DNA from: Selaginella moellendorffii
Taxonomy: Eukaryota > Plantae > Lycopodiophyta
Reading direction: 5' to 3'
DNA length: 64,000 nt
Assembly (NCBI RefSeq): GCF_000143415.4
Contig: NW_003314362.1
Coordinates: forward strand, 577,371 to 641,370
Part shown: one piece after another, positions 16,280 to 59,018 of the stretch
Position numbering within the stretch: the first letter of the stretch is position 1
Layout of the letters: each line of letters starts with the position of its first letter
Notes under the pieces: model-generated
Told to the model about the DNA's origin: nothing
Database searches by the model: none
The model's input: only the letters and a program-made list of their open reading frames with translations
Made by a program: the position numbers and the translations under genes

Positions 16280-16300
16280 TTCCTCATTTTTGCATCCCTC

Positions 16301-23069: not shown

Positions 23070-24161
23070 ATGGCGGAAGAGCGTCATCTTGGTGTGGCAA
23101 TTGTGATCGGCGTGACCGGCATCAATGGAAACAGCATCTGCCGCAAGCTCCTGGAGCGATCCTGGCAAGTCTACGGCACGGGGCGCCGCGATCGCCCCGA
23201 CTGGCTGCCCAGCAAGGTGAGCTACGTGCAGCTGGATCTGCTGGATCAGGTGGATGTGCAGACCAAGCTGTCACCGCTCAAGAACCGCATCACGACTCTC
23301 TTCTGGGCGGCCTGGATCCCCATGAAAACGGAGGAGGAGAACTGCGATGCGAATGGGACGATCTTCCGCAACACCCTCGACGCTCTGCTTCCAGGCGCGC
23401 TCCGCCATATCTGCCTGACCACGGGGGCGAAGCACTACCTGGGGCCATTCGATCGGTGGAGGGATGTGATGCCCGCGGAGGCTCCGTTCCGGGAAGACTA
23501 TCCCAGGCTTCCGGTCCCCAACTTCTACTACGTCCAGGAGGATCTCCTGTTCGACAGGGTGAAGCAGCACCCGCATCTCACATATTCGATCCACCGGCCC
23601 AGCGCCATCTTCGGATTCGCGCCCAGGAACTATATGAATTGCATCCTGGCGCTGGTTGTTTACGCCGCGATCTGCAAGCGCGACAAGCTGCCATTCCGAT
23701 TCTTCGGGAGCAGGGCAGCGTGGGAGGGCCTGACGGATGCATCCGATGCGGATCTGATTGCCGAGCAGGAGATCTGGGCTGCCACGCATCCGGCTGCCAA
23801 GAACCAGGCGTTCAATATCACCAACGGGGATGTGTTCAAATATAAGCAGCTTTGGGCTGTGATCGCGGACGAGATGGGGGTGGATCCTGCCCCGTTCGAC
23901 GGCGAGAGCGTCAGCCTGGAGCATCTGATGAGGGGGAAGGAAGGGAGCTGGGATGCTCTTGTGCGCGAGCACAAGCTGCTGCCGACAAAGTTCCACGATG
24001 TTGGGCAGTTTTGGTTCCTGGATACAATGTTCGGGGCTCCAGTAGAGAACTTGAGCAACATGAACAAGAGCAAGGAGCTCGGGTTTCTGGGATTTCGGAA
24101 CAGCGAGAAGTCTGTGCGGCACTGGATTCAGGTGCTCAAGGCGGAAAAGATCGTTCCCTAA
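23070..24161 (+). CDS. VEP1: Progesterone 5-beta-reductase/iridoid synthase-like (PRISE) SDR, copy 1
   Basis: GVTGING, GTGRR, TGAKHYLGPF, NFYYVQED, SIHRP, DASDADLIAEQEIWAA, MNKSKELGFLGFRNS motifs. Intronless, 363 aa. Confidence 0.93.
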   Translation: MAEERHLGVAIVIGVTGINGNSICRKLLERSWQVYGTGRRDRPDWLPSKVSYVQLDLLDQVDVQTKLSPLKNRITTLFWAAWIPMKTEEENCDANGTIFRNTLDALLPGALRHICLTTGAKHYLGPFDRWRDVMPAEAPFREDYPRLPVPNFYYVQEDLLFDRVKQHPHLTYSIHRPSAIFGFAPRNYMNCILALVVYAAICKRDKLPFRFFGSRAAWEGLTDASDADLIAEQEIWAATHPAAKNQAFNITNGDVFKYKQLWAVIADEMGVDPAPFDGESVSLEHLMRGKEGSWDALVREHKLLPTKFHDVGQFWFLDTMFGAPVENLSNMNKSKELGFLGFRNSEKSVRHWIQVLKAEKIVP

Positions 24162-25390: not shown

Positions 25391-25923
25391 ATAAACTCAT
25401 GAATTTGGACTTCCCAGGAGGTCACTTAACCCAAACTCAAGGATATATAACCCCAAAAACATTTAATCTTAAGTATCCCAAAACCATTAATCGAGTGAAA
25501 AAATATATAGATAGTTTTTTAAGTTGTTCTCTTTAGTTACTTATAGTATATTGTAAGTGATTAAATTTTTCATTTTAATTTAGTCATTTAACCACACTTC
25601 TAACCACTTAGAAGACTTTTACTCCCCACCTTTATAAATTTTATTTTAAACTTGGGGACTTGTTAGCCCCAAAAATGGCACCTATACTATTTAATCTTTG
25701 CCACTTGGTCCAAGTGCTCCACATGTTCAATCTTATAATCAACACCTAAAGGTATCACTAATCTATTAACTCGTTGCGTTAAGGCTGTGCTTATTCACCT
25801 TTTGTCACACTAGTGGTCTAACACCACCTACATCATAATCCCATCTCTCCAAAATCAGGCCATTTGTACTAAATCTCTTTCTATCCATGGCCATGTTTAC
25901 CAACATTGCCATTGAGTCAAGGC

Positions 25924-28900
25924 TGTGAGACACAAAATCCCTAGGCCCCAAAGTGGAGCCGAAAGGGTGCCACGTGGTAGTGGCCGAAGCGAAAGCCAAA
26001 CAAGTGTAACACGTTTGGACTAAAAGCTCCGACTTGAAAAGGTCGAGAGTGGGAGTGGAACTCTCAACGAAGTGCTCGAGGAATGAGCACGAAGCGAGCA
26101 ATAAGCGAGGCTCCAAAAAGGGACCTAAAAGGACCAACTCATGACACATGGAAGTGTCCAAGATGGACCCAAGATGGACCCGAGTTGGAGTCCGAAGTGG
26201 AGTCTGAGAAGGACCCCGAGATGGAGTCCGAGGTGGACCCGAGATGGACCCAAGTTAGAGTCTGAAGTGGAGTCCGAGAAGGACCCCAAGTTGGAGTCCG
26301 AAGTGGAGTCCGAAAAGGACCCCGAGTTGGAGTCCGAAGTGGAGTCCGAAGTGGACCCTGAGATGGAGCCCGAGTTGGAGTCCGAGGTGGAGTCTGAGAT
26401 GGACCCGAGTTGGAGTCCGAAGTGGAGTCTGAGAAGGACCCCGAGATGGAGTCCGAGGTGGAGTCCGAGGTGGACCCGAAATGGACCCGAGTTGGAGTCT
26501 GAAGTGGATTCCGAGAAGGCCCTTGAGATGGAGTCCGAGGTGGAGTCCGAGGTGGACCCGAGAGGGACCCGAGATGGATTCCGAGATGGACCCGAGATGG
26601 AGTCCGAGATGGAGTCCGAGATGGACCCGAGAAGGAGTCCGAGATGGAGTCCGAGATGGACCCGAGAAGGAGTCCGAGATGGACCCGAGATGGAGTCCGA
26701 GATGGACCCGAGATGGAGTCCGAGATGGAACCCGAGATGGAGTCCGAGATGGAACCGAGACCAAGACCGAGACCGAGACCGAGATCGAGTCCGAGTCCGA
26801 AACCAGGACCGAGATCGAGTCCGAGTCTGAGTTCGAGTTCGAATACTAATACAGGCAGCTGGGTGAAAGCCCAAAGAGATCATCCCCCAGGGGGGGGGGG
26901 GCTGCGGGGGGTTCCAAAAGTATAGTAGGGAGAGTGTGGGGGTTGGAGCCCAGTGGAGCCAGTTTGGCCATGAAAGGCTAGTTTGGCCCAGGAATGGCCA
27001 GTTTGGCCCAGGAAGGCCATACCCAGTGTTGGGTGATGAATTGACCACTGGGAAGTCCAAGACTAGAATGAATACGGACCGACAAGCAGGGTAGCTTGGT
27101 GAAGTGTTCAAGAGCCGGCTCTAGTTCCCCTGGGAGATCGACTGACCGATGCTCTCAGTCCAAGTGTGGGTGGCACTATCTACTTGGATACCTGGTGTGG
27201 CTCAACGGAACCTCGCTCTAAACCCATGGCTAGAGCACCCAAAGGTGAAAGGCGGGGAGAGTACCCATGAGGCCCGCGTAGGGCCATGGTGTTCCGAAAT
27301 GTTGTCCCAAAGTCCCAAACTGTGGAAAGGAAGAGGAGTAGTCCTCTGGTGTAATGACCAAGGATACAGTCGAGTGGTGAGGAAGTCCCAAAGGACCATG
27401 GGACTTAATGGTTGGGCCTGTGGGCCTCGATCCAGTGGTGTTGGCGAACACGGCCATGGGCAGAAAGGGACTTGGTGAAGACTAGAAAAGGGATATTGAG
27501 GAAGGCTATTCCCCATGTCTGTGGGCATCCTAAGGATGCTAAGGAGTGGATCTGGAATGATCACTCATGGACGGATGGCCCAGTCCTTAAGAGATGGGAC
27601 TGTGATGCAGGTGGTGTTAGACCACCAGTGTGACCAAGGTAAAGGGGCATGGCCTTAGCGTAACGGGCTGATATATGGGTGGTATCTTGGGGTGTCGGTT
27701 ATGGGATCGGACATGTGGAGCACTTGGATCAAGTGCAAAGGTTGAGTGGCGGGGATGCCATTCTCAGGGCTAGCAAGCCCAAGTCTGAAATAGGACTTAT
27801 GGAGGTTGTGAGTGAGACTCCTTTAGGTGGTTGGAGGTGTGGTTAAGTGACTAAAGTAGAATGGAAAATTTAGTCGCTTACAACTTGGTATCAGAGCTGT
27901 TCCTTAGTTCGACTTTTATTGGTGCTGAAGTATATCACCACTAGTGTTGGCATCGGAAGGTCCTAGGAGTGGGCTTGTCCTTGAGGAGTAGCAAGTCAGG
28001 AAGACATGGCTCTCCACTATAGTTCACGGGTGAACTTGTAGGCAAGGTGGTGGATAGAAAAGGGCCAATGATGGAACGACTTTGGGATCTTGGGAACAGT
28101 GTAAGGCTTTCCTCATTGAGTGAGGATGTGATCCAAATGAGCGTTTGATGTAGCAAATGGGCTAACATAGTTGTGGTAAACAACTATAGTTAGGATCACG
28201 GGAAAGATGCAGACTCCAAAACAATAAAGGAGTCACAAGATTACCTTTATATAGTTGAGGTTGGTGCTCATAACTTTGAGACCGGAATTATTGACCATGG
28301 GAGGTCAAATACGGAAGAGGACACAAGTCCTTGAAATGGTAGTTGGGGCTACCTCTAATAAATGCAGGAACAACCCAACGGATTGGGGGTGTACTTAGAG
28401 GATGAGTTACTATTCTCATCACATGGACAAGTGGTCCTAAGGGGCAAAAGGTTGCCCCAGAGAACAAAATCAAGTGTCGATGTAACACTTGCAAAGATGG
28501 TCCTTGTGAGTAGGACATGAATACAAAAAGTTGTATTCTAGTGAGCTAGCACCTCGAAGACTAAGACCTCGCAGGTTGTTAGATTAGTAAAGTCTAAAAT
28601 GCTGGATGACTCAAGTGGAGTCAGGGAATGGTCCTAAGGGATTGGTTGAAGCATTTAGACTGAGGTGTGTGGTGCCCCACGAAGTATGGGGAGGATCTTG
28701 AGATCCAAGCATGAAAGCAGTATGTATCTCATTGATAGCAGAAAGAGCCATGCTAAAGTCATGGGAAAGAGTTTTCCGGAAGGAAACAACTTTGACACAA
28801 AGTTGTGCATGAACTCTATGGTGCAGTGCTAATGGATAATTGGCATAAGGGACAACCATATTGGTCTTGGCAAAAATACCTAGACACAAGTAAGAAGTGT

Positions 28901-31900
28901 CATAAAGGTAGGCTCGTGAAGCCGATGGTGTGGAGACACCAAAGGTGCCAAGGCGTGCTGCCTTGAGGTCAAGTTAGCGGGTTCATGAGAACCCCTTCCA
29001 AAGGAATCCCAATGGAAATGGGAATAGCATAGCCTAAGCTGGAAGGCATGCGGTTGGAGTGTGGTGACCCAAATAATGATGGAGATGTGGAAACACCATG
29101 CAATGAGTTGTAGGACTTGACAACTATGGGGCAACTAAGCAACAAAGATAATTGGTTAAACGGGTAAAAGATAGCTACCCAAGACTTTTTAATGGCATAA
29201 GGAAGCTAGATATACCCTTACAAGGGCTAAATTGCTTATGTTGCGATATAGTGAGTCAATGTCATAAAAGGAAATGCTCATTGTCAGGGAGACATCATTG
29301 GGACACCCAAACACTCTGGAACACCAGGAAGTGGTGTTTGGTGTCGCGAGGGCAATAGATAAGGCCCAAAGGACTAAGTCCCTAGCGAATGATGGATAGA
29401 AGGTGCTATCCAAATGTCCAAGGTTGCGGAGACGGGAGAAGACTGTCTACCCGAATTGGACAAAGCCAAAAAATTGGAATTTTGGCAAAGCTAGTGAAGG
29501 CCTATGAGCAGCAACATTAACCTCGTTGTATGGGATTATAAGGTGAGCATACCTGGATTGAGGAACCACTCCCTAGGCTATCAAGTAGATTCATCCCTAA
29601 GAATACTTGCTAAGGCATGATAGAAAGTGCAAAGCTATCTTCCTAGTCTTGAGGAGAATGACCGAAGGAAAGGTGTCAAGCCAAAAAGCAAGTAGTAAGG
29701 GGATAGAACCGAACCATAGGAATCGAAGGGCATGACCAAGGCTGGTTGTGCTAGCTGGGAATGGAGAATCAAGTGGGGGCTCGAGGGTGTTGTTGCTGGC
29801 AAATCGTGATGCCATGGAGAGTCTAAAATATGGAATTGTCTATGTTAGACTATATGGCAACTGGAAAGCTTGCAAAAAGGGAGGCCTTAGCAAGCTAAGG
29901 GACAAAGTTCCTTCAAGGTTCCCAAAGACGATTCTAGGTAGCTTAGTACCTAGAAAGGCCAAGTGTAAATGGTTTATGGAATGCACGAAATCAGAGTGGC
30001 GTAGCAGAAGCGTGGTCTTAAAGCTTGCCATGGGGCAAAGCTATCAAGGTTAGGGAAGTAGTTCCCGAGTGTTCAAAGAGAGGGCTTTGAACGAAAGTCG
30101 ATGGTCAAGGACTTTCACGCTTATGCAGGAACCATGTTACGGTGGTCGGAGGACTTACCAAGCGAGATTGGCAAGTCGGGGGAACAAATACCTTAGTTGA
30201 AGGTGACAACTTCAAAAAAGGGTGGGCTATGGGGCCAAGCATGGAGGAGTCCATGCATGATCACAGACGTGTCAAGTGAGAGGACTTGGCAGTGTGGAGG
30301 AACTAGGTTCCGAAGCTGTGATCTATAGCGCGCTTTAAATATAAGTTGGTGCACCGGCGTGGGGAATCACGCCAGGCATCCTGTGCGATGCTATCCATAG
30401 ATGCATATACGGAGGTTGGGTTCGAGTCCCGACCCTCTAGTGCAAAATGGAGCCGAAAAGGTGCCATGTGGTAGTGGCCGAAGCGAAAGCCAAACGAGCA
30501 TAACACGTTTGGACTAAAAGCTCCGACTTGAAAAGGTCGAGAGTGGGAGTGGAACTCTCAACGAAGTGCTCGAGGAATGAGCACGAAGCGAGCAATAAGT
30601 GAGGCTCCAAAAAGGGACCCAAAAGGACCAACTCATGACATATGGAAATGTCCGAGATGGACCCAAGATGGACCCGAGTTGGAGTCCGAAGTGGAGTCCG
30701 AGAAGGACCCCGAGATGGAGTCTGAGGTGGAGTCCGAAGTGGACCCGAGATGGACCCGAGTTGGAGTCCTAAGTGGAGTCCAAGAAGGACCCTGAGTTGG
30801 AGTCCGAAGTGGAGCCCGAGAAGGACCCCAAGATGGAGTCCGAGGTGGAGTCTGAAGTGGACCCGAGATGGACCCAACTTGGAGTCTGAAGTGGAGTCCG
30901 AGAAGGACCCTGAGTTGGAGTCCGAAGTGGAGTCCGAGGTGGACCCGAGATGGACCCGGGTTGGAGTCCGAAGTGGAGTCCGAGAAGGAACCCGAGATGG
31001 AGTCCGAGGTGGAGTCCGAGGTGGACCCGAGATGGACCCGAGATGGAGTCCGAGATGGACCCGAGATGGAGTTCGAGATGGACCCGAGATGGAGTCCGAG
31101 ATGGAGTCCGAGATGGACCCAAGATGGAGTCTGAGATGGAGTCCGAGATGGAACCGAGACCAAGATCGAGACCGAGACCGAGATCGAGTCTGAGTCCGAA
31201 ACCGGGACTAAGACCGAGTCCGAGTCCGAGTTCGAGTTCGAGTTCGAGTCCGAATACTAATACAGGCAGCTGGGTGAAAGCCCAAAGCGATCGTCCCCCA
31301 GGGGGGGAGGGGGCTGCGGGGGGTTCCAAAAGTATAGTAGGAGTGTGGGGGTTGGAGCCCAGTGGAGCCAGTTTGGCAAGGAAAGGCCAATTTGGCCCAG
31401 GAACGGCCAGTTTGGCCCAGGAAGGCAATACCTAGTGTTGGGTGATGAACTGACCACTGGGAAGTCCAAGACTAGAATGAATACGGACCGACAAGCGGGG
31501 TAGCTTGGTGAAGTGTTTAAGAGTCGGCTCTAGTTCCCCTGGGAGATCAACTGACCGATGCTCCCAGTCCAAGTGTGGGTGGCACTACCTACTTGAATAC
31601 CTGGTGTGGCTCAACGAAACTTCGCTCTAAGCCCATGGCTAGAGCACCCAAAGGCGAAAGGCGGGGAGAGTACCCATGGGGCCCGCGTAGGGCCACGGTG
31701 TTCCGAAATGTTTTCCCAAAGTCCCAGACTGTGGAAAGGAAGAGGAGTAGTCCTCTGGTGTAGTGACCAAGGATACAGGCGAGTGGTGAGGAAGTCCCAG
31801 AGGACCATGGGACTTAGTGGTCGGGCCTGTGGGCCTCGATCCAATGGTGTTGGCGAACACGGCTATGGGCAGAAAGGGACTTGGTGAAGACTAGAAAAGG

Positions 31901-32291
31901 GATATTGAGGAAGGCTATTCCCCATGTCTGTGGGCATCCTAAGGATGCTAAGGAGTGGATCTGGAATGATCACTCATGGACGGATGGCCCAGTCCTTAAG
32001 AGATGGGACTGTGATGCAGGTGGTGTTAGACCACCAGTGTGACCAAGGTAAAGGGGCATGGCCTTAGCGTAATGGGCTGATATATGGGTGGTATCTTGGG
32101 GTGTCGGTCATGGGATCGGACATGTGGAGCACTTGGATCAAGTGCAAAGGTTGAGTGGCGGGGATGCCATTCTCAGGGCTAGCAAGCCCAAGTCTGAAAT
32201 AGGACTTATGGAGGTTGTGAGTGAGACTCCTCTAGGTGGTTAGAGGTGTGGTTAAGTGACTAAAGTAGAATGGAAAATTTAGTCGCTTACA
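25924..32291 (+). mobile_element. LTR retrotransposon with ~1.9-kb LTRs (25924-27882 and ~30445-32291) and a decayed, deleted internal region
   Basis: TG...CA ends; PBS TGGTATCAGAGC (tRNA-iMet) at 27886-27897; TSD AAGGC at 25919-25923 and 32292-32296. The 3' LTR lacks its first ~25 bp. No intact gag/pol ORF. Confidence 0.9.
26157..26845 (+). repeat. GAGTCCGAGATGGACCC-type tandem array inside the LTR (other copies ~30650-31255, ~46070-46380, ~59230-59580)
   Basis: Imperfect 9-12 bp units (ggagtccgagat/ggacccgagat) that generate spurious ESEV/WSPR ORFs. Confidence 0.9.
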
Positions 32292-32886
32292 AAGGCCTAT
32301 CAGCCTGACTATTAAGTCCCACCGCGCTTTAAGACTTTTTGACTATGTAACCATATCCTTAGTCACTACACCAAAATATTGCTCTTTTTTCTTTCCACAG
32401 TCTAGGACTTTAGGATAACATTTTGGAACACTGAGGCCTTATGCGAGCCTCATGGAAGCTCTATTTCGTTAAAGTGGGAATTGTCATTATCCCACTTGTA
32501 AAATAAGGTTTCCAAACCTTTATATAGTATATAAATATAACAAAATTCAACTGCATTGAGGCATATGCCATTTTATTTTAAACAAGGAAATGTCTACTCA
32601 ATCACTTCTCACTGCTTCACCTCTCTCTTCTCCTTGTCATCGTCGTCCAATTTCTTTCCATCCTTTTAATATTGGCTCAGTTGCTCCGAGTCTAGGTGGA
32701 GCCCAAGTCCCCATTCAATCTTTACTTTCCCCTTATTAATAAAACAACTTTGTAGACTTCCAATAACATGCTGTAACACTTCTAGTATAATGCAAATCCT
32801 CTCAAAGAATTGTCTTTTAATATTAATACAATGGCATGGAACCCCATGCCATAATAAGTTACATTTTTAAATAAATACATGCCATC

Positions 32887-35800
32887 TCAGACTGTTATTT
32901 TTTGCCTCCAACACCTATACAATAATCTTGGAATTTCATCACTCTCCACACTATCAGGATTTAAACCCAATAGTAATGCCATCTCTTCTCTAATACGTCC
33001 ACGCTCATGTTCAGTGGTCGAAGAACCCATCCGGTTGAGCAGATTATGGAGATGCGGATAGTGCTTGGCTAGACAATATACATGCCATAAATGATGACTG
33101 GTGTCTGTCCGATCAAATGGCTTCTGATATACCGTTCCATCTGCCATTTGGTTGATTTCTGCAGCCACTTCCTGGACTGGCCGGTTCTCTATCACCATCG
33201 CTTCAAGCCGTTTTGCAAGGTCCCCCAGAACATACGGTTTCTTCTCCCTAGTTTCCATACTGCAAGAGATGGGGTGCACTGCATATGTGTGCGTGTTCGC
33301 TGCAGTTTTAATCGGCGAGTCATCGATGATGAGGATTTCACTTGACCTAGCAGTCCGGTTCATCACTACAGCCTCTGCCTTGACGAAGATGGGCTTGCTA
33401 CCCCTCACATGGACCATAGTCAAGCAATCCTCCTGCGTTAGGAGAAAGTCAAATGGTAATATTACTCGCGTCTGATCGTGCATCATCTGTAGCAACGTTA
33501 ATGCATTGTGGCGCATCATGGATGTCCAAACTCCCAATTGCAAATTGAACCCGGCCCTCTGTTTTAAGTGTCGCATGGTCATTATTAGATCCCGCAGTTT
33601 CTCCCGTGTGATTAATGTGAATCTGTCTCTTTTGACCAACTTGCGACCGCAGGCTTTGGAGGGTGCAGTGACATTCGAGGACGAGCCACGCTCATGGGAG
33701 AAAAGGACATTGTTCAGATAAAAAACGATACAGTACTTTCGCCGTGACTCTGAAATGAAATGCGTTAGCATAAAAAATGGTACAAGTCAATTTTACCATC
33801 TACAATATTAGCGAATGGTGCTCCCGATGGTCGTTGAGAGGGTTTTGGTCGAGGAAACGTGAAGGGCGGAAATACTCTCCTCTGCAATGTGGGGTCAATC
33901 GCATCCGATGGCGTGTGGGCACATGCCATTTCAGCTGTAGACTCTGGTACAACTGGCTCAACAGTGGCATGGGGTGGTTCCGATGGCGTGTGATCACACG
34001 CCATTTCAGCTGGTGCCTCCGTTGGCAAAGTGGACATGACCGAACAGGCAGCAGGGGCGGTGTAGGGAGGTTCCAATGGCGCGTAGTCAGACGATTGGGC
34101 ACACGTTGGAAATGAGGATACGACCAGCTCGGCGGCTGGGGCGGCCTCATGTGGGTCCAATGGCGCCTGGTCACCGTCAGTTGGATACGTGGACAAGATT
34201 GACTTAGTGGTATGGGCAGCATCAAGTGGAGCGTGGTCAGCTTACTTGGCGTTGATATGGATAGTAGCCTCCACCAGCTCTGATGACTCTTGCAGGCAAG
34301 TAGAGTCCACTGGCGGATCCATATGCATGTCCAAATATCTCCCTTCGATTGAGATGGTATCCTCCCGTGCTACTAAAAACAAACTCATTAGCACATTGAA
34401 TCGACTATACTGTATTTACCATCAACTGCTATTGAGGAACTAGGACCGATATCACTTGGGCGCACTGCTGATTCTGAAGGATTGGACATACGTTTCGACC
34501 CTTGCTTGGCACTATCCTTCCTCGACACTAAAGGCTAGAGTTTGTATCTTAATTCAACTGAATAATCTCTACTTACCATTTCTTCTGCGACCTACATGGA
34601 CAATGTTAGAAATGGTAAAAGGTTAGGAATGGATGTACTATTATTTACCTGATGGTTTGTCTTGTATGACCTTCCTCCGCTGCTCTTTGGCCACCTCAGG
34701 CTGGCCATCATCGTCATCATCGTTATCGTCGTTATTGTGATCGTCACCATTGTGAGGACCATCCAAGTCCTCTTCGTCCTCCTCTTCTTCGTCCTCCTCT
34801 TCTTTGTCCTCCTCTTCGTCCTTCTGCTCTTCCTGCTCATTATCTTTCTCTGGCTCCTCATCCCCCTCTTGCATTTCTTCCATAGGCTGCTCAGGCTGGA
34901 TTGCTTGTTTTTCCAGGACCATCTTGGAAAAATCATCTGGCCGAGTCTCCATCTCAAAATACAAGACATCCATAGCCTGTTTTAGTGCGTGACCTAGGAC
35001 CGTATCCTCACCCGACTGTCTTAACATGGTTTCTGCACGTTCTTGCACCCTTCGAAGACGACGAGATGAGAAAAACGTGGCCCTGACTTGAAAAGCATCC
35101 CTCATCCATTATACCTCTCCATTGAGATTGGGGAAGGGGAGTCCGCCATAGGAATCTGAGTCAGAAGGTGGTGACTGGCTCCTTTCACTCAGCCCTTGAT
35201 CTGCAATGAATGGCATGAGCACACACGCCATAACCGCGAGGCATTACCTATCATCTTTTCGTTGCCCTTCTTCCTTTTCGAATCAAACGCCTCTGATCCC
35301 GACGACTGTCCAACGTGCTTTCGTTTTTTATGACCACTGTCAGTTTGAGCTTGGCTGGTGCTTGCCTGTTTTGCCTTTGAAGAAGTGTCTCCTGCAAGGA
35401 ATGGCATGAGACCACACGCCATTGCAAATATAATTTGTACCTCCTTTTTTCCTATTGCTTGTCTGTTTGTCCTTCTTCGACGCGCCACCAGTGCGCTTTT
35501 CAGTCCTCGTGTCTGAATATTCACAACGATCTATAATCAAAATGGCGTGAGGCCTCACGTGACCTTACCTTGTGCAGGTTGTGACCTCGGCCTAACATCA
35601 GTAGCTGTTAACGCCGTTTCAGCATCTGGGGGTGGCCACGCTCCTGCATACAGAGCTTGTGAGATAACATTTAAACTTAAAGTGCGTACTCACCAGGTTC
35701 GCAGAGAAGATACTGTTTTTCTTTGGCAACTGTAATTATATGCTCCATTGAAGTCACCTCTTCAATGGAGTTTGTCACCGCAACACACGGGACACCCTTG

Positions 35801-38475
35801 AGTAGTGCGGCTCGAAAGAATAGTCCGCCGCAGTTGTACTCGACAACGCATTTGCCCTTGGAGTCACCCGCTATTGCGTTGAAGACCCAGCTGAGCATTT
35901 CCCATGCTGCACCTGGAGCTTTCTTTGGATTCGAAAGCTCCATAGCCATCTTCAGTTCCTCAGGCACGGGTAAATTGACCTCCCTCAGATCAATTCGATC
36001 GGCTTTGTTGAACGAAGCTGGGAAGTCACTCCAGTCCCACTCTGCTGCAGGACCAATAACAAGGGCGACTGTGAAGATGCGGACATTCGTCGGTATCTTC
36101 TTCTTAGCCATTATCCCATGGATCTCCCGCATCTCCTTGCCTTTCAACCGAGCCTTCACCTCGTTCAAGGCCTTCCAGAACTTGTGATAGGATTCGGAGT
36201 CGTAGATCATATAGTGGACTGAAGATTCCACCTCCGCAAGTCCCACCATTAAGTCAATGATGGAGCTGACTTCGTCTGCATGAGTGATCTCCTCGTTTGT
36301 GAAGTCCATCACACAAAAGATGTTCTTGACCTGCTCATCTCCGCGGGAAACGATGCTCCTCCACCTTTGATCCTCATCCGAATTCACGTATACCCGGTAA
36401 GGTTCTCGATAGGCCTCTGCTGTGGGGTCGAGCTGTTTCTGAAGCCGGCGGTCGACATCCCTCTTAATGAAATTTGGATACTGATCCAACTTCTCAGCTT
36501 TACTTTTCGTGGCATCCCGCAGCAGATCGATGAACTTGGGGGCCCCCTTCACGTACTCGTCGATGTCTTCATTTGACAAGTCCAGCTCTTCCATCATCTC
36601 TTGCATGGTGTCGATGCTCACCCTCGCCACGGCCACTTGCTCGAAGATCCAATCCTTCAATAGCGCACGAGCTCTCAGAGTCGTGCACAAGTCCTCGTAT
36701 GTCACAATATGGCCGGGAGTCATTTTGGTCTTGTTGAAGACTACCTCACCACGTAGAAGAGCATTAGCCACTGTCAGAAGGTCGTCGTCGTCTAGAGACC
36801 GCGAGAAACGCAAGGCGTTGAGCTTCAAATCATTGGGCTTCCGGCCGTCCTCCACACCCATTGAGTTTAGCAACTCCCCGTCATGGTACCTCCTTAGCAC
36901 ATCTACCCATTTGTCAAAAACAACTTTTGTCGCGAGTAGAATGTTATGGATGCTGAGTGTGTCATTGACCCCCAGTGTTTTCGAGAGAAGACTCGAAAAT
37001 TCCTGCAATGGAAATGGCGTGAGGCCACATGCTATGCCACATGCAACGAGGCTTACCTGCCAGGCGCTAGTTGCTAGTGCACGTCCTTGTCCTGGTTTTT
37101 GTGGCTTCTTCAGTTGAACCCAGAGCTTCCGTGTTTGTGCCAATGTCTCGTGCAGACCTGATTTGTAGCACGTTTCTTGCTTGACATTCTGCGCGTGGGA
37201 GATGTATATGATAGATCGGAGGGGCGAGTTGCCTTTTATCAGGCGGACAACTCTTGTCTTGAAGACTTTCTTCACCTCCTCGCCCACCATAATATCCACA
37301 ACTATCTGTTGCATCGCCAAGCTAGAATGCTGCCCGGAGACGGCATAGAACCGGACGTTCTGATCGTCCAACACCTTCCTATTGATCAAGTCTGGAAACC
37401 TCGTCTCGCCCTTCATTGTTCGGTAGTAGGGGATCACGTCTGCGATGTCGGGTGTTACTGGACTTGCCAGCATCTTCTGCTTCAGTTTCTCCACCCACTC
37501 ATCAGATACTAGCCTGTGGTTGTATTTGCTTTGGATCTCGATACGGCTCACGTCGATTGTATATACTTTGTTGGAATAGTAACAAGTACTATTATCTGCG
37601 ACGATTTTTGCTGCCTCTTCTTGCTCTTTCTGCTCTTTGCGGCTCTTCTTTTTGGTGGGTGTAGTGTTCGAACCCGAGGCAATGGCATCACCGAGTAGCT
37701 TCTTTTTTGGAGCAGCAGAGTCGGACGTCGGCTTGAGCTTGACCACCCTTTTCTGCTTCGGGGTAGTTTCCAGATCGACCCCCTTCCCCTTCGCTTCGCA
37801 AACTGGAGGCACTCTCAACGGCTCAATGTTGGAATATAGTTTTTGAACATCGCCGTAGGTGAGGTCCGTGGATTCCATGTGATCTTCATAGACCCGCAGC
37901 GTCTTTGAAATTGTGGGCCTCCTGGACAACCTCTCCCTAGCTCCCTCTAGGAATTCCTCATAGCCGCTGCCCCCCTCCGGGAAGCCGCTAGGATGTGCAA
38001 GGTGGATCTTGAAGGCGGACGCTGTCTCTACCACAAGTGCCAGTCCATATTCTTGCATGGAACTGCATGGAGTGTCTGTCACTTGGATGAGGATCCCCAT
38101 GCATTCTTTTCTCCCACCATCTGTGTTGTACAGCATCAGATCCTCGCCTTCCATCCCGAAAGTCCAACTGGTGAGCTCCTCCCCCTTCTCTGCATCCACA
38201 TTGACAGTGGCTGGAAGAAGAACGCAATTCCTCGCTTGTTCAAAAATGCACAACAATTAGAGCTGACAGATGAAAAGCTAGCAGCTGGAAATAACGTGAG
38301 GCCACACGCCATTCACCACTGCATCAGATGTCTTGAGGCTGCATCCTAAGATGGCGTGAGGCTACACGCCATCTATAACCGGATTGCACTCGAGAGCCCA
38401 ATCGGTGCATGCCAATGTTGCTACTGAATGGCATGTGGCCTCATGCCATTTTCTACTTGGCCTAAAAGACTTACC
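32887..38475 (-). pseudogene. Transposon cargo gene, multi-exon: ParB-like domain, degenerate beta-class amino-MTase-like domain, basic/acidic linker, FCP1/NIF HAD-like domain; two premature TAA
   Basis: The ORFs 35677..38256, 35340..35558, 35189..35524, 34641..35105, 33765..34196 and 32887..33771 join in frame through GT-AG introns (37056-37003, 35693-35644, 35568-35513, 35440-35392, 35247-35201 and further phase-1 introns). In-frame TAA at 35109-35111 and 34242-34244. The 5' exon and 3' end are uncertain. Confidence 0.75.
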
Positions 38476-40061
38476 ATTTGAAGCCGAATGGAGGCCGTGA
38501 CAATCGAGGCCGGACTCGCTGGCGAATGTGCACTGTGTGTGCAGCGGATCGTAGCAGCAAGGCTACTCTGCCACTTACAGTTGGAGAGTGGTGCTGAAAT
38601 CTCCCGGGACGCCAAGTGGGCTGCGTGTGGGTGGCGGAGTGGGCGGCGGAGTTGGCGGCGAAGTTACAAACTGGGTGTGTCTTGAAGTGGACGCCGATGC
38701 ACACGAGCGCGTTGGGAGCGCGAGTGTGATGCAAGCGCGAGTGGACGCCGATGCACACGAGAAACCTGTAGAGAAGTGAGCGTGATCGCGAGTGGGAGCG
38801 CGATGCGAGCGGGAGCGCGAGTGTGATGCGAGCGCGAGCGCGAGTACAAAGCAAAATGCAAAACCTAACTTCACACGCGCGAAATGTCACAACGGTTGGT
38901 AATCCCGCCACGTCATCATTCCTCGGACTTGGGCGCCACCATTAATTTCTGGATTGCCGCGCGCATGCAAGCATGCAAAATCCAAAAGAAAATCCGCAAC
39001 GTCATCATTCCTCGGACTGCATGCACGCGAAATCCAAAAGAAAGATCATGATTGGGATATCATTTAATACCCTCGCTATATTTATACCATGCATGATTGG
39101 ATATTCCAAAGCATCTTGTATTTCCAAAAATGGCAGATGTTCAGCTAAATAAAGAAATTCTATCTGTTTCTATTTTTCTCTCAAATCAATATTATAGCGT
39201 GTGGGCTCATGCAATTTTGAACCAAAGAAACCCAAAAAACGTTGGACCCAAAATATTTTGAAAAAACCCAAAAAACCCTAAACATTTTAAACCCAAAAAT
39301 CCAGGCGTCCTGTGGCGTTATTCCTTGAATGGCGTGTGGGCGCATGCCATTTTCAGGGCCAAATGCTGAATGGAGAAAAATTCCCTTTCAGTGCAAATGC
39401 TGCAAGAGGCAGATGCCGAGCACAAAGGACTGTAACTACCTCACATGACACAGATAAACTTTTTTCTATTTGGCAAAGATAAACTTTATAGCGTGTGGGC
39501 TCATGCAATTTTGAACCCAAGAAATGCACCAAAAAATTCTCGGCGTCATCTGGCATTATCTCTTGAATGGCGTGGGGCCGCATGCCATTTTCAGGGGCAC
39601 ATAAGAGTATATTCCTAGGATATTCTGACACGCGCGAGATTTTTTTGAGTTTTCTGGAGATCCAACCGTTAGATCGCAACTAGATTTTACAGAATGGTAT
39701 ACAATGTCTTTCTTGATGACCCTGCAAATAAGCATCTCGATCGGACACCACATGAGACCACACGAGCCTTACAATGTTTCAGGGGCATTTGCCATAGATC
39801 CGACCGTTATTTTGCTCCAAGATTTTACAGTTTGGTGTGCATTGACCTTTCCATCGAAACTGCAAAGGGACATCACAATCAGATGCGGGATCACAAGAAA
39901 CTAACTTCACTAACTCTGGTTTCACCAAGATCTACGTAAGGAGTTATGAAATGAAAGGACCCTCTCTATTGAAATGTGTTTATGGTCCTAGGGGCATTGT
40001 GACATATCAAAGGATTTTGCATCAAGTTCTATATTTGCATGTTTATCAAGCTACTGAATTG

Positions 40062-40095
40062 CTAAACCCTAAACCCTAAACCCTAAACCCTAAAC
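40062..40095. repeat. Interstitial plant telomeric repeat, (CCCTAAA) x4-5
   Basis: ctaaaccctaaaccctaaaccctaaaccctaaac. Confidence 0.85.
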
Positions 40096-41190
40096 ATGTG
40101 GCAAATGCTGCGTGAAGAAAGATGCCCTTTCTGGGCAAATGCTGTAAGAGGCAGATGCCGAGCAGATGTATCTCAGGCTAGCGAAGGGGACGAACGAAAG
40201 CTAACTATAAACATGACGGGATGCAAATAGATTACTAGGCTGGTCCTACGAAAATCAAAAACCATAATTGAAAACATTGAAAATGCAAAAAGAAAGGTTT
40301 ATAATATTTTTGAATTTTAGGCAACCAAAGGAATGTAAGTAGGGCATGTGTTTGTAAGTTTAAAAATGCCTCAACCACTTAAATTCCCAAGTAAATAAAG
40401 CTGTTTCTATTTTTGGTACAGGTAAACTTTATAGCGTGTGGGCTCATGCAATTTTGAACCCAAAAATGCACCAAAAAATGCTCGACTAGCATTATTCTTT
40501 GAATGGCGTGTGGCCTTATGTCGAGCATTATTCTTTGAATGGCATATGGCCTTATATTGCCATAAATGGACGTACACACACAGCGTAATTATTCCTTTAC
40601 ACGGCGAATAATCTTGGCGCGGATCGCTGACATGGCATGGCAAAGTTCGAATCACTGACATGGCACAGCTGGATCGAGGCAAGGACATGATGTGACAAAG
40701 TTCAACCTCCGACAGCAAAGTCTAGAAGCTACTCAGTTTGAAATTTGTCAGAGGAGTCATAAGATCTAGTTTGTCAGAGGATTTGATGTGACATTCAAGC
40801 GTGTGTTATTTTTGAATTCTCAAACTCATTCCTAGGTCTATCATTTTTGTGCGCCGTGTTCTTGGTTCCGCTGAGCGCAGTGAGCGCTGCTTGTGTAAGC
40901 GGCGTTGTGGGCTGTGGTTTATGCGTCTACGAGCGGTTGCGGCATTGCGAGCGCCATTGCGAGCAGCAGTTTATGCGAGTTGCGGTGTTGCGAGCGGCAC
41001 TGTCTTTGGTGTGGCTACCGCTTCCTCTTGATATTCGGCACTTGTGCTTCCTGGTATGTTCACCATGGAATGGCTTAGGACCACATTTAGAAATGGCATG
41101 AGGCCACATGCCATCTTGGGCCCTTGCAATTTCATGGCTAGCGTATTGTCATGTATGTTTTTACTTGCCTGCAGCTGTGTGTATATCAAG

Positions 41191-41382
41191 ATGGCATGAG
41201 GCCTCATGCCATCTTTGGCCCCTGCTAGCCTATTGCCATATTCCTTTTGCCTTGCTGCAATTGTATATATTTTTGTATGGGTGACTAGTCACGCACACAA
41301 AAATATATACAGTTGCAGCAAGGCAAAAGGAATATAGCAACAAGCTAGCAGGGGCCAAAGATAGCGTGAGGCCTCATGCCAT
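41191..41382. repeat. 192-bp loopless foldback (inverted repeat)
   Basis: Arms pair around GTGACT|AGTCAC (centre 41286/41287) with few mismatches; both ends are copies of the 22-bp palindrome. Confidence 0.9.
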
Positions 41383-41570
41383 TAGTGGTACCACTAATGG
41401 CATGAGGGCTCATGCCAATTTTGTGAATGCGAAATTTCACGTGGGTGTCAATAGCATGTTTGAATAATGGCATGTGGCCTCATGCTATTGAGGTTGTTTG
41501 GTATGTTATGATTTAGGCCATTCTCCAATCATTTTTTGTATGGTCTTAACTTCTTTTCTGCACTTTCAGA

Positions 41571-44500
41571 ATGGCCTTCAGGGTTGGGGAAAAGGTTTAC
41601 ATTTTGAATGGTGGGAAGAGAGTTGCAAAAGGGACCCTTGTGTCTATGGATCGGAACTTTGTTATACACTGTGAAAGGCTTGGGGAAGGCAATGCTGCTG
41701 TATCAGTAGAGACTGTCTTCGATGGGAATGTGGTCGCTATTGAACGAGGAGAAATGGTCGTCGGGGTAAATGTTGTTGTTGCCTTGAAAAATCTTCAGAA
41801 GAAAGCAGATGTTGGGGACAACGCAAGTGCGACACATGTTCCCTCCGTGGATCTTAAGAACCGTGCTACATGGATTCAGGCAAAAGTGTTTCTAAACAAC
41901 CCCGAGGGGGAGGTGGTAGCTGAGGGCTTAGCCACAGTTGTCGATCCAAGAGATGCGGTTGCTAATCAAGAATTGGGCTGGGATGATATTGGAGTTGCGA
42001 TTTTAGAGGTTGTTGACACAGAAGAAAACAGTCTGACTATTGGAAGCATTGTGCGGTGGAAATTGAGGCACTTAGTGTTTGAGAATGTGAAGGATTCACA
42101 ATCAAACACCACTACAACTGATGACAGAACATCTCTTCATGGGAAAAGAAAGTACACCTTCCTAAAGCGCAGCCAAAGGGATCTGAGCAACGAACCGAAA
42201 AGGCAGAAAATGGCGATGGAGGTTCGAATGGTCTCGACAGTTGCTTGTTGCAAGAGGAGGTGCTATCAACATGTTGATTGGGATGCTATTGAAGAGGAGA
42301 GAGCAAGATACAAGACATTGTCTTGGAAGGCAGCTTGCAATTTTGTGTATGAGGCATTACGGTCATCTGTTGATGCTTCAGAACATCAGGTGGGGGGCAT
42401 GGTCTTCCAGAGGGGTTTGGTCTGCATGAAGGCATGGAGAATCATTTATGGAGTCCCTCGAACCACATTCTACAGAATCAAAACTGAGTTCGAGGAACAA
42501 AGGGTTCAACAGGCAGTCCATGGGAACGACGGTACGCACAAAACCAGGGGTCATGTTGTATATGGAGAGGCAATCTTCAAGAGGTTTGTCGAGACATGTA
42601 GCGAGTAGCAACCACATAAAACCCGCCTCTTGGAAGATGGAACACGAGACATCCAACGAGTTCTCCCTTCCATGTATACCAAGGGGGCCATATTGGAAGA
42701 TGTGAATCGGGAACTCCAGAGTAATGGCTACAGGAAGCTGAGCCAATCTAGATTTAGTAGATTGTGGAGCAACAAGTTCAGGGATGTGAGTATAGGAAAG
42801 TACTCCAGCTTTTCAAAGTGTGACGAGTGCACTGCTATCAAAATGGCTTTGTCGAAGAATTCTTGCAGCGCTCAAGAGCGAGAGACGTTGGTTAGAAGGC
42901 GGCTCGACCACAACATCGAGCAGAGAAGCTGCAGGACTGCATATTATCATAACAGGATTCTCTCCATGGAGAGACCTGACTCTTACCTCTGCATCATCCA
43001 CGACAAAATGGACCAGAAAAAGACGTGCTTACCTCGACTCAATCCTGCCCCCAAGGCAATCTCTTCATCCATGCAGCTGCCTGTGTCTCTGTTTGGCATA
43101 ATCGCTCATGGGCATGGTGCCCAGAACTATGGGAACTTCTTTGTACCTCTATGGGGTGGCGGGGGTGCAAACATGATGATTGCGTCCCTAGCAAAACACT
43201 TAAGGTCTCTGCAAAGTGCGCAGACTGAGCTGAACGGCCAACCCTTGCATAAGGCCCTTGTCGATCGAACCCCATACAGGGTTCAGCTGGAGGAGGAGCA
43301 AAGGCTTGCAGTATCGCGTGGGGCCCCATGCCATCCCAGTGAATATGTTGGCCGTCAGATTGTAGGGTTATCACGTGAGGCCTCATGCCATTCCGACGAG
43401 GCTGGTCGCCTGGTGAATGCACAGCCTCATCCAAACGAAGCAGAATCTCAAGGAAGTTCTTGCGGCCGATGTGGCCTTCCACCCCATCTTCTGCTCCAAA
43501 CAGACAATGCTGGCAGTGAGAACAAAAACATGTACGTCTTCGCGTACTTGGCGATGCTTGTTGCCAAAGGCATATTTGAAACGGTTACACTTGGCTTTCT
43601 CATGGTTGGGCACACTCATGAAGACGTCGATGCCATGTTCAGTCACCTGGCAGAGTCCCTCCGGCGATCCAATGTCCTCACCCTCCCACAACTCTACGAT
43701 GAATTCCAAAATTGCATCAAAGGCACTGTTGAAGCTGCACTTCTGACAGAGGTTCCAGACTTTAAGGGGTTTGTAAGAGGCTACATCAGGGACGGATCCG
43801 AAACGCTGATTGGCCACTCCAAGCCTCTTCAGTTTCATTTCAGCATGTGTGACGGTGCTCCAGTGATGAGGTACAAGATGAGAGAATGGGACACAGTGTG
43901 GCTGCCAGTGGACGGCATTGAACTCTTCAAGAGAGATCCCATAACTGGGGAACCTATGATTCCTCAGGGTTCCCCACGGCCGATGCACCCGGATGGACTC
44001 AAAGACCAGGAAAGTATAGTGGCCGGGATTAGATAGCATATTGCCTTCTGGAAGAGGGGGTTGGTGTTTGGTGGAGAATCCTATTTTCAGAGGTGCAAGC
44101 CTTTGCTCGAATACTGGGAGAAGATTATATCTGCTATCCAAAATGGGCCGGTTGTATATGAAGAATTGGAAGAGTCCTTTTGGCCAGAACCCAGAGCACT
44201 AGATAGTAGCGGAACAATGTCCTCTGGAAATGCAGTGACAGATAACGATGTTGAGGATCACTATTGTGGGCCGAGGAACAAGAAGCCGGATTCAGCATTC
44301 AATCCAGTACAGGTCTGCAAAGGAATGGTCGTGCTTGTCAGACCCAGTAATAAAAAACAAATGATATGGGTGGGGCGCTGCATCACTGATGCAGAGGAGG
44401 ACGCGGAAACTAACTCCTTCAATGTAACTGTGGAGTGGTTCAAGCCAAGTTCCGGATATACGAAGGATTGCCTAGAAAAGAGATGGGTGCTAAATCCAAG

Positions 44501-44639
44501 GGATCCCAGCATGAGCATATCGGTGGATAATGTTGTGCATGGTTGGATGCGGAAGCAGAGTGCCACCATCACCTTGCCAGACCATGCAAGAGATGCAGCA
44601 AGAGCATTCATAACTCGGGTTCAAGGTGAGATTCATTAA
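41571..44639 (+). pseudogene. Sola-like (Sola1-related) DDD/E transposase, one ~1022-codon frame with two in-frame TAG stops
   Basis: ORFs 41571..42608, 42630..44036 and 44061..44639 share one frame, with TAG at 42606-42608 and 44034-44036. Motifs: VCMKAWRIIYGV, FSKCDEC, IIHDKMDQKKT.LP, LQTDNAGSENKN, FLMVGHTHEDVDAMFS. The 4-bp TSD fits the Sola superfamily. Confidence 0.82.
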
Positions 44640-47600
44640 TATTCCTTTACAAAGTTTCTAATGTATTTTATTTCAAGGTGAACAATCCGAATCTGAATCA
44701 GAGGAGGCTTGATATAGTGTGTGAGGTAAAACAAAGATGATGTGACATATGCATTTACCAATCACACGTGCATAAATCTAATAATATGGCGTGTGGCCCA
44801 TATTAATGGCACATAAACCCATATTGTGGGCTTACGTGCTTTATGTACCATCATTCCCTTGCAGCGTGTGTGTTGGTTTCCTTTTATAACACAACGAACT
44901 CCATATTTTAGGGTGAAGAGCGTTCTCATGGCAAGCACAAAATCTGTAAGTGAGGCAGAAAAGGAGACGGAGAAGGAGATAGGTGAAGATGTAGAATATA
45001 TAAGTCTTCCAAACTCCCCGTACTATACTCCAGGTGATCATTTTTCTGAACAAACGGCAACATTAACAACTATCGAGAACGCCCCAGTAACGTCAGAGAC
45101 AACAATCCAAAGCAAAACAACTGACCCGGAGAAGGATGATAGTACCGCTGAGAGTACCAAAAAGGAGGTGTCCACTAGCGCTTAGGCTTATAATGGCGTG
45201 TGCCCTCATGCCATTTACTTGATCACCAAATACTTTTTTCCCTTTGCACTAGTATATCTTAATACCGGTCTGAGAAATAGAATGGCATGTGCCCTCAGGC
45301 CTTTTACTAAATCACCTTTGAAAGAAATGCAAGCCTCTATGTCGTAAAAAAAAGGTACTAGAGAAATTCCTTAATAATATGAATGTTATTTAGTTTCATG
45401 AAAATACACTAAGGGTCAAATGAGTTAAATGACTTCTCCAGACTAGCAATGCCTCTTGCTACACCTTCACAATTAGATTCGTTAGAAAAAGATAACATTG
45501 AATAATATCTAAATGTTCTCACCATTAAGTTATATGTCTGGCTAATAGGAATGATGTTCATCTTGGAAAGCTCACCACACGCTCAATGAACAAACAAATA
45601 GTGTGTGCGCGCATGCCATCGCTCTTCTTTAGCTTCAGATTCGGCTTGTTCACCTTGACAATGAGATTTATTATACAACTAGATGGACTCAGTCTGGACA
45701 TAAGGTCACCGCGCTAGTCACCATGCCCCAGATATGTCTAGCCCCTGGACAAAAAACATATAATTTCACGTCATTTTCAAATACTTGAAAATTTGTACCT
45801 AGTCCCATTTTACTGAATAAATCCCACTTTAACGAAATAGAGCTTATGGGTACTCTCCCCACTTTCTGCCTTTGAGTGTTCTAGCCATGGGGTTAGAGTG
45901 AGGTTTCATTGAGCCATGCCAAGTATCCAAGGAAATAGTGCTACCTATGATTAGACTGAGAGTATCGACCATTCGATCTTTTGGGGGAACTAGAGCCAAC
46001 TCTTGAACACTTCACCAAGCTACCCCTGTTTATCAATCTGTATTCATTATAGCCTATATTAGTATTTAGATTCGAACTCAAACTCGGTCTCGGACTTAGA
46101 CTTGGTCTCGGCCTCAGTCCCAATTCCATTTTGGACTCCATCTCAGACTCCATCTCAGTTCCATCTCGGACTACATCTCAGACTCCATCTTAGGTGTATC
46201 TTGGATTTCATTTCGGACAACATCTCAGGTCTATTTTAGATTTTTTCTCGAGTCCACCTTGGACTCCATCTTGGACTCTATCTCAAGTCCATCTCGGACT
46301 CCTTCTTGGGCCTATCTTATACTCCATCTCAAACTCCATCTCAGGTCCATCTTAAGTCTTATTTTAGACTCCGTCTCAGGTCCTTTTTCTAGAGACTCAC
46401 TTACAACTTGCTTCATGTTCATTCCCTGAGCACTTTGTTAGGAGTTCCACTCCCACTTTTGACTATCTAAGTTAAAGCTTTTTAGTCCAAATGTGTTGCA
46501 TTTGTTTAGCTTCTACTTCAGCCACTATCAGATACCATTGTTTCAGCTCCACTTTGGGGCTTAAGGATTTGTGTTTCACATATATTCATTATTATCTCGG
46601 TCCCCTTATAGGTTTTTACTTAAACAAACCAAAAATAATTTGTTACACATTGCATATAATTTAATGAATTTATTAATTCAATGTATCTAATGGAAGTTTA
46701 TAATTATAAACATGCTTATAATTTATAAACACAAGATTAATCTTATTAAATATCAACAATTAGATGGTAGAATAAACTAGAATATAGTAAGAAGTGTTTA
46801 AGAAAGTTTATAAATTAGAAATACAAAATTTATCTAAATGAATAATAAATTGTTTTATGTTGCATATAACAACACTTAGTTTGCTTAATAGTAGTGTTAT
46901 TCTTGCCACTAAGATTAGATATTGGTAGTTCACACAGATCTAAATACTATTAAACTTACTAAAATACCTATTTAATAAAAATATTGCCACTAACTTAATA
47001 GAATATTCTTTAGCGTGCTAGAATATTCTTAATATTCTTGTCAATGGTAATGGTTCTCTTGGCTCCCTGTTGACATGGCTCCCTATATTGGCAGATTCAT
47101 GTATGGTTGTCTGTTGGGAAGAGGTAGATCCTTCAGGATTTCTGCCACAGCTTTGAGTGAGTATTATCATTTGTTTGCACCAAGACTCTTTCATGAATCC
47201 ATAGATTTGGTACTTAGAGTTGCCACAGCTTTGAGGTATGTAACTAGTCTTTGAAATCTTCAATTCAATATTGATGTGGATTGATGCTAGAGGAGTCTTG
47301 GGTTTAGAGATTCAGGTATGTCCAGCTTAGTATGTAAGAGTTCACTGTTTCACCTGTGGCTTGAACTACCACTACTTTCTACATTGTCTATTATGTTTGG
47401 CAAAGGTAACATACAAATAAACAATGCTGATACTTTATTCTCCAAGACTGCAGCCTCAAATTAATTTCTCTACTAAGCAATACTTGTACAATGCCTTGAT
47501 GGACAATGCCTTTTTATCAGTGAAGTAGTAGAGTTGATGCTGCTCAAAGATTGGACAAATATGCACATGATGCATTGAGAGTTTTGATAAGTAATTTTTA

Positions 47601-58910: not shown

Positions 58911-59018
58911 AAAGAAAAACTATTTCTTGTTATAATGATAAATTACTAATTTATGTTACTTTATAAAAAGGTTTATCGTTCGATGAGGACATCGAACTTC
59001 GTTTATGGGTGGTGGAGT

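Follow-up and report, generated by a model that had tools for sequence, protein, structure and literature searches.

Why do several very short introns in one gene of a DNA transposon each contain the same palindrome? The question is raised by a stretch of 64,000 nucleotides from the lycophyte Selaginella moellendorffii (contig NW_003314362.1, positions 577,371 to 641,370), referred to below as the window, in which a transposon encodes a transposase on the plus strand and a large accessory protein, the cargo, on the minus strand. An initial annotation of the region had offered two explanations, either that the sites are parked in introns, where they can cover the gene without altering the protein, or that a motif-bearing unit created the introns in the manner of introners, and had added that the hairpin could influence splicing. 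The analysis presented here favors the first option: within the window, the palindrome is confined to this one transposon and concentrated in its predicted introns. It probably serves as double-stranded DNA on which the cargo protein, modeled with a ParB-like fold, can dock.

Distribution of the palindromic sites

The motif, ATGGCRTG-N6-CAYGCCAT, is a 22-bp palindrome with an 8-6-8 layout. Allowing up to four mismatches, the window contains 26 sites, all located between positions 32831 and 45619, and none was found in any of five shuffled versions of the window. The sites score 18-37 bits in a matrix scan, compared with a maximum of 5.4 bits outside the element; no site lies in the remaining 50.6 kb of the window, and exact half-sites occur 39 times inside the element and nowhere else in the window. 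Most sites have only these 22 bp in common, with several arm positions conserved to more than 90% and unrelated flanks across 13 kb, while some show duplicated flanks (repeat families D11, D13, D18, and I5). A search for the motif in viral contigs gave no matches.

Within the element, the density of sites amounts to 10.0 per kb in the cargo introns and 9.7 per kb in the predicted 5' intron of the transposase gene, to 2.4 per kb in other non-coding parts, and to only 0.41 and 0.65 per kb in coding sequence. Coding sequence makes up 59% of the element, yet it contains only four of the 26 sites (P = 5e-6), and introns account for 12.5% of the cargo gene, yet they harbor seven of its nine sites (binomial P = 1.4e-5), which supports the proposal that sites are parked in introns. 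Ten sites belong neither to predicted introns nor to coding sequence, and six of these lie between the two genes. The terminal inverted repeats are devoid of the motif, and the outermost sites begin 375 bp from the left end and stop 226 bp short of the right end; the sites peak internally, in introns, without clustering at the ends. The motif is specific to the element and enriched in introns and other non-coding parts, as in VANC-type systems.

A near-perfect palindrome of 192 bp (41191-41382; 96-nt arms, 92% identity) with a copy of the motif at each end is present in the 5' intron predicted for the transposase and may represent one way in which sites multiply. Two deletions of 59 and 62 bp (35174-35232 and 35494-35555) were observed in the sequencing runs X1 and X2, which represent one sample. 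Each of them removes a palindrome, in whole or in part, together with an acceptor, but their ends do not coincide with intron ends; they are possibly palindrome-associated events in decayed copies.

Predicted introns and their relation to the motif

The cargo model contains ten predicted GT-AG introns (Table 1), which were called by splice signals and reading frame with the sites in view. The four short segments singled out by the initial annotation, introns 2, 4, 5, and 6, were recovered with the same coordinates, lengths, and GT..AG ends, each with one site that makes up 39-47% of the intron, and the single site at 32831 and the lack of one in intron 3 were likewise confirmed. The generalization that the small introns each carry one site does not hold, since only four of the nine predicted small introns do. 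Intron 1 indeed contains three sites, but it ends at 38236 rather than at 38240 as annotated; its acceptor reads AA in the window copy and AG in all four sequencing runs, in frame with the ATG. Intron 2 is predicted as an in-frame and stop-free segment and is backed by homologues, and introns 4-6 are predicted because they carry splice signals and their removal restores the frame. Intron 4 is unlikely to be only 38 nt long, as its branch site would then be 21 nt from the donor; where other small introns offer a candidate, this distance is 32-43 nt. Contigs of run X20, tentatively taken as RNA, cross introns 1 and 10 without a gap, which is no evidence on splicing because this run possibly consists of DNA. 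The insertions found in predicted exons of other copies (9, 12, and 15 nt, plus 2+1 nt at 34367-34368) have lengths that fit coding status, and the internal TAA at 34244 corresponds to a glutamine codon in four of four sequencing runs, with C on the coding strand. The nearest Atlas clusters consist of streptophyte proteins of 813 and 1,673 amino acids.

For intron 2, the homologues suggest which came first, the intron or the motif. A HMMER search with the cargo protein returned 24 proteins, of which 22 were counted after two repetitive ones (P0002 and P0006) had been dropped; word-index protein searches with the cargo gave no match, and none of 52 pattern matches for cargo loci in metagenome contigs was confirmed. 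The junction of intron 2 is crossed by seven of the 22 homologues, all of which score higher against the spliced query (e.g., 64 instead of 47 bits and 52 instead of 37 bits). Nine others show a break between [WF]x and V, which is the translation of a phase-0 GT donor, at 25-33 residues past a conserved anchor (26 in the window), three begin just downstream of the junction, and three are uninformative. The protein P0015 matches P0008 at 81% identity as far as this very junction and then continues with intron-like sequence. Five of the read-through tails, which comprise 10-28 residues and cover the start of the intron, would need at least six mismatches to encode the motif, compared with one in the window. 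As the homologues sharing the position are only about 25-30% identical and these five tails lack the motif, the position of intron 2 appears to be older than the motif, unless an intron was gained repeatedly at one site.

It may still be asked whether a motif-bearing unit made some of the introns, by introner-like insertion or by copying of a block of motif plus acceptor. This is most plausible for introns 5 and 6, whose last 31 nt are 90% identical (repeat family D8) and whose ends resemble that of intron 2 in seven to eight of the last nine nucleotides; introns 3-9 also share phase 1 and are located in a fast-evolving linker. Yet the 5' parts of the introns are unrelated, the first 16 nt of the four site-bearing introns matching at 4-9 positions, compared with 4-11 among motif-free pairs, and the motif-free intron 10 shares its acceptor tail with intron 6 (8/9). 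The whole-length likeness expected of introners is missing, with only the motif and the acceptor tail common to the site-bearing introns. Exact removal of an intron was seen at none of eight joints in four DNA-type runs, where most copies share 95-100% identity and rare variants are lost from the contigs. Together with the distant homologues sharing intron 2 and the lack of sites elsewhere in the window, these features make such an origin quite improbable. An introner origin thus fails for intron 2, where the sequences allow a test, and is without support for introns 4-6, so that the creation of introns by the motif, which would have been the more surprising story, is not supported. Exons 4-6 are not recognizable as tandem duplicates either, 52-91 of 200 shuffles scoring as well.

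Candidate reader and competing roles of the palindrome

The cargo protein is predicted to comprise a ParB-fold domain, a helical domain, a degenerate N6/N4-methyltransferase-like domain, a low-complexity linker, and a degenerate NIF/HAD domain. An AlphaFold model of the region 35701-37650 has a mean predicted local distance difference test (pLDDT) score of 66.8, with high values over the first two domains, including the confidently predicted helical domain that follows the ParB-fold domain. ParB, Noc, and KorB rank first in Foldseek, the top three of 48,161 chains in a wide structure search belong to the ParB family, and the predicted ParB/Srx nucleotide-binding fold superimposes on Caulobacter ParB (7bm8) with Z 11.1 and a root mean square deviation (rmsd) of 2.1 over 98 residues. 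At the sequence level, a search of the PDB gave a best E value of 0.25, and a single-sequence model of the homologue P0016 was unusable (pLDDT 34). The last 90 residues of the model resemble Rossmann methyltransferases at a middling Z of about 6-7; Pfam recognizes N6_N4_Mtase in one of 23 members (E 2e-4), and Atlas lists phage fusions of ParB and N6_N4_Mtase at 0.78, which serves as a lead only. The catalytic motif [DNS]PP[YFW] is absent from the window domain and from all six homologues checked, while a degenerate motif I stays, and the C-terminal NIF domain (Pfam E 2e-4) reads YLNN in the window, compared with DLNG or DLDD in homologues. As judged from the loss of these catalytic motifs, both the methyltransferase-like and the phosphatase-like domain look inactive.

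If the palindrome is a docking site for this protein, the sites would have accumulated after the introns existed, wherever the protein paid no cost, and the small introns would have become parking places that carry sites into both gene bodies. A dimer of the ParB-fold domain would recognize the 8-6-8 palindrome in the way that ParB recognizes parS, which is a 16-bp palindrome, and would coat the element. The likely purpose would be to keep the element transcribed despite host silencing, by analogy with the role of VANC for VANDAL elements. Because the catalytic motifs are missing, the cargo would act as a reader that recruits other factors and would not itself set a mark.

The arms of the palindrome are informative on the kind of molecule that is recognized. 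Only two of 37 paired arm positions that are off consensus stay Watson-Crick, and these uncompensated changes fit a double-stranded DNA site; as far as the sequences tell, recognition of such a site by a dimer is the best fit. A role as an RNA hairpin, which would mask the branch point and acceptor and thereby restrain splicing of the cargo mRNA, would not account for this pattern nor for the ten sites outside predicted introns and coding sequence, and little probability is assigned to it, although many sites are oriented so that G-U pairs are allowed on the transcript strand, and the hairpins predicted for introns 5 and 6 span the branch site and the acceptor (-14.5 and -16.2 kcal/mol, with 5 and 8 of 200 shuffles as good). 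Two of the four site-bearing introns exceed their shuffles in folding stability (z -2.5 and -1.7), but introns 2 and 4 do not (z 0.45 and -0.22). The suggestion that the hairpin affects splicing is therefore retained only in weak form, as a possible side effect on introns 5 and 6.

Six introns have no site close to their acceptor, and in five of them CTAAY or CTCAC is found at -15 to -22. This branch zone is occupied by the motif in introns 2, 5, and 6; no CTRAY is present there, and the sole adenine in the zone belongs to the CTCAY of the motif, at -18, -16, and -16, respectively, so that the branch must use a motif base if it is located at the usual distance. CTCAY is compatible with the branch-point consensus yUnAy given in a study on human data (PMC2367711). 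In these introns of 47-54 nt, the site thus likely shares its CTCAY with the branch point. An extension of the docking model would start from this overlap: a bacterial ParB/parS-like pair would have turned into a self-recognition system with sites in branch points, the same bases acting as DNA site and lariat adenine, the need for splicing would hold the genic sites in place, and either the protein or the hairpin could couple protection to splicing. This extension is rather doubtful.

The palindrome might instead be bound by the transposase or by a host factor, in the manner of subterminal repeats in hAT and CACTA elements, and be located in introns for the same reason of cost. The transposase is the other DNA-acting protein encoded by the element, and the confinement of the sites to the element would agree with such a role. 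However, transposase sites cluster at element ends, whereas here the terminal repeats lack the motif and the sites peak in introns, which renders this reading unlikely. Finally, the sites with duplicated flanks could suggest that all of them are neutral by-products of local duplication, purged only from coding sequence; this is hardly credible for a motif of which most copies share only 22 bp with highly conserved arm positions and unrelated surroundings.

Several relatives of the transposon (L001-L003) are available as short contigs of 2.2-4.4 kb that cover the transposase side only. The window motif is absent from them at up to six mismatches, and L001 contains a different 22-bp palindrome of 8-6-8 layout twice, at 53-74 (5' of the transposase start) and 3415-3436 (just after the stop); a pair as close is given by three of 150 shuffles. 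This palindrome lends weak support to the view that the sites are family-specific.

A number of observations weigh against the reading of the palindrome as a docking site parked in preexisting introns. Five of the nine predicted small introns lack a site, and four of the 26 sites are in coding sequence (two in each gene, all missed by the initial annotation), albeit in variable linkers, namely a Pro/Ala-rich linker of the cargo and a variable insert in the catalytic region of the transposase. Foldseek reaches only E 0.006 or weaker for ParB, a ParB-like fold also occurs in sulfiredoxin and serine kinases, and matches that reach the ParB DNA-binding domain do so at an rmsd of about 10 or more, so that a helix-turn-helix is a tentative assignment at most. 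The seven homologues crossing the junction of intron 2 could be intron-less genomic copies instead of spliced products, introns 4-6 are located in a low-complexity region without homologues, and the common ends of introns 5 and 6 have been described above. The statistics for the branch-point register are weak (P 0.14 from position and 0.015 when orientation, assumed at 45%, is added), and the transcript strand shows CTCAY in 10 of the 12 intronic sites, whether or not an acceptor is close. Among the related elements, L003 holds one degenerate copy of the L001 word (145-166), and the two palindromes of L002 represent one local duplication. Lastly, the window copy is decayed, with four internal stops and one broken acceptor.

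The element, its surroundings, and its relation to known systems

Table 1. Coordinates of the transposon and its features, numbered from the first nucleotide of the window.
Feature	Position	Strand	Remarks
Whole DNA transposon, 13,390 bp	32456..45845		Terminal inverted repeats and 4-bp duplication ATGG; inserted in LTR-like repeat
Left terminal inverted repeat, 27 nt	32456..32482	+	First 24 nt equal the right repeat; palindrome not in it
Site 3' of cargo stop codon	32831..32852		
Cargo gene, predicted 11 exons, 1,630 amino acids	32887..38477	-	Two internal TAA (35111, 34244); based on gene model, folds, Atlas, Pfam
Intron 10, predicted, 47 nt	33750..33796	-	Without site
Two sites in cargo coding exon (33908, 33983), 75 bp apart	33908..34004	-	Pro/Ala-rich duplicated linker; repeat family D13
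Intron 9, predicted, 50 nt	34370..34419	-	Without site
Intron 8, predicted, 49 nt	34528..34576	-	Without site
Intron 7, predicted, 57 nt	34592..34648	-	Without site
Intron 6, predicted, 47 nt, phase 1	35201..35247	-	Site 35210-35231
Intron 5, predicted, 49 nt, phase 1	35392..35440	-	Site 35401-35422
Intron 4, predicted, 56 nt, phase 1	35513..35568	-	Site 35542-35563 adjoining donor; in-frame AG at 35531 would give 38 nt
Intron 3, predicted, 50 nt, phase 1	35644..35693	-	Without site
Intron 2, predicted, 54 nt, phase 0	37003..37056	-	Site 37014-37035; position recurs in distant homologues
Intron 1, predicted, 239 nt, directly after ATG	38236..38474	-	Three sites (38291, 38351, 38428); acceptor mutated in window copy
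Six sites between the divergent genes	39194..40524		39194, 39329, 39488, 39567, 40431, 40503
Predicted transposase 5'-untranslated region intron	41056..41570	+	Five sites (41093, 41191, 41361, 41397, 41467); GT..AG in sequence
DUF7869 transposase gene, 1,022 codons	41571..44639	+	Two in-frame TAG; two sites (43313, 43370) in variable insert of catalytic region; Pfam PF25273 E 6.8e-43
Three sites in right non-coding end	45193..45619		45193, 45282, 45598
Right terminal inverted repeat	45819..45845	-	

As judged from its sequence, the element is a DUF7869 (Sola-like) transposon with two divergent genes, for transposase and cargo (Table 1). DUF7869 presumably corresponds to the Sola1 transposase; no literature naming DUF7869 was found, and no named Sola1 transposase was among the relatives returned by the transposase search, which come from Riccia, Physcomitrium, and animals. 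The first in-frame TAG of the transposase corresponds to Q in the 97% identical protein P0025, and an acceptor-like AG is present just 5' of the transposase start in L001-L003. Downstream of the transposase frame, the region 44626-45185 likely contains more exons and introns, with an intron-like stretch carrying a half-site at 44786 and a short acidic open reading frame (ORF) ending at 45185. The transposase gave no alignment in viral contigs; the sole locus in prokaryote genomes is a weak DUF7869-like match (E 3e-10) at L004 10001-10568, on a contig of a prokaryotic metagenome-assembled genome.

When the joined flanks are compared with three empty paralogous copies of the surrounding repeat, which resembles a long terminal repeat (LTR), within the window, exactly four extra bases, ATGG, are found, and the target duplication therefore amounts to 4 bp. 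The terminal inverted repeats and the 4-bp duplication are both traits of Sola1-type elements. The sequence ATGG falls outside the Sola1 target preference AWWT/AWDT (PMC3845634), although a single insertion is too little to define a preference. Intermediate-frequency variants at the element in the sequencing runs point to a multi-copy family, and the changes mostly read C where the window has T, indicating that the window copy is decaying. The CpG ratios across the parts of the element (0.54-0.90) give no clear methylation signal, and an Rfam scan of the element returned no matches. Upstream of the cargo start, at 38771-38845, CG-rich (GA/GC) repeats differ in length among copies and resemble an unmethylated promoter island, and between the two genes (40062-40095) a plant telomere-type 7-mer is repeated five times; a similar repeat fills a deletion in one X1 contig.

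The window as a whole has the character of plant-like DNA with very short introns. The LTR-like repeat, one copy of which houses the transposon, contains 12-bp tandem arrays and occurs in several copies (25500-32460, 45846-46400, and 58950-60350). The minus strand at 12810-16675 contains a gag-like ORF with zinc knuckles, preceded by small ORFs, which probably represents an LTR retrotransposon fragment. Duplicated host genes are found at both sides of the window, as judged from their translations: short-chain reductase-like ORFs at 22887-24161 and 48140-49306, and an F-box-like gene pair at 2694-4150 and 62562-63997.

Closest in gene content is Sola1-1_Ec32 of Ectocarpus, whose accessory gene on the opposite strand encodes ParB-like and N4-methylcytosine/N6-methyladenine methyltransferase domains and is proposed to bind and modify the element's own sequence (PMC12477816). 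The window element shares the type of giant Sola1-type transposon, the two-gene layout, and the accessory gene with ParB-like and amino-methyltransferase domains, and differs in its land-plant-type host, the lack of [DNS]PP[YFW], the added degenerate NIF domain, and the dispersed intronic palindrome, which is not mentioned in the accessible part of that paper. The Plavaka protein PAG3 of Bostrychia moritziana also has an N-terminal ParB-like domain, with 7BNR as best match, and is proposed to bind inverted repeats (10.1101/2025.02.11.637652); 7BNR ranks near the top for the window cargo, too. That system, however, combines an EnSpm/Plavaka transposase with a 2-oxoglutarate oxygenase partner domain and carries its repeats as tandem arrays beside the gene, whereas the window element spreads single sites through introns. 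ParB-helix-turn-helix methylase fusions known from chlorophytes and chytrids do not belong to the window cargo family (PMC4738411), and no literature on ParB plus methyltransferase transposons in Selaginella or Physcomitrella was found. The design of a transposon with a ParB-type accessory gene has thus already been published for algae; a similar role was proposed there, no target having been tested according to the accessible text.

The distribution of the sites resembles that in the VANDAL elements of Arabidopsis, for which demethylation has been shown as well as binding of VANC21 to motifs that lie in VANDAL21 introns and elsewhere outside its coding sequence (PMC5735166). In both cases, short motifs that are specific to the element, and in VANDAL and possibly here to the family, are concentrated in introns, intergenic, and terminal non-coding regions; they are bound by an element-encoded accessory protein in VANDAL, and the window cargo is the candidate reader here. 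VANDAL elements are of the Mutator type, unlike the window element, and their motifs are 8-9 nt long, non-palindromic, and amplified in tandem repeats. There is no sign of kinship with VANC, Pfam and fold searches giving ParB, although a direct comparison with VANC was not made. The bacterial ParB-parS and Noc-NBS systems resemble the element in the predicted N-terminal nucleotide-binding fold (Z about 11) and in several palindromic sites on the encoding DNA unit, but the GxxR-like motif reads SGQHS in the cargo, no ParA is present, and the unit is a eukaryotic transposon. With introners, it shares several short introns with a repeated sequence of internal symmetry, while only an internal 22-bp motif is common, sites are present in other parts of the element as well, the position of one intron appears older than the motif, and the eight joints in four runs gave no presence/absence copies.

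Compared with these systems, the new features are the quantified parking of sites in introns, one intron apparently predating the motif, enzyme domains that look inactive, and a likely sharing of bases between sites and branch points. A sharp candidate target of 26 copies, combined with a compact predicted binding domain, renders the proposal made for the algal proteins testable. If it is true, two unrelated protein families would have converged on one layout with recognition sites hidden in introns, and a programmable-looking reader of 22 bp would be of practical interest. The element, which fails the introner tests that could be run, is therefore best regarded as having a VANC/VANDAL-like layout and filed closest to the Sola1 ParB-methylase elements.

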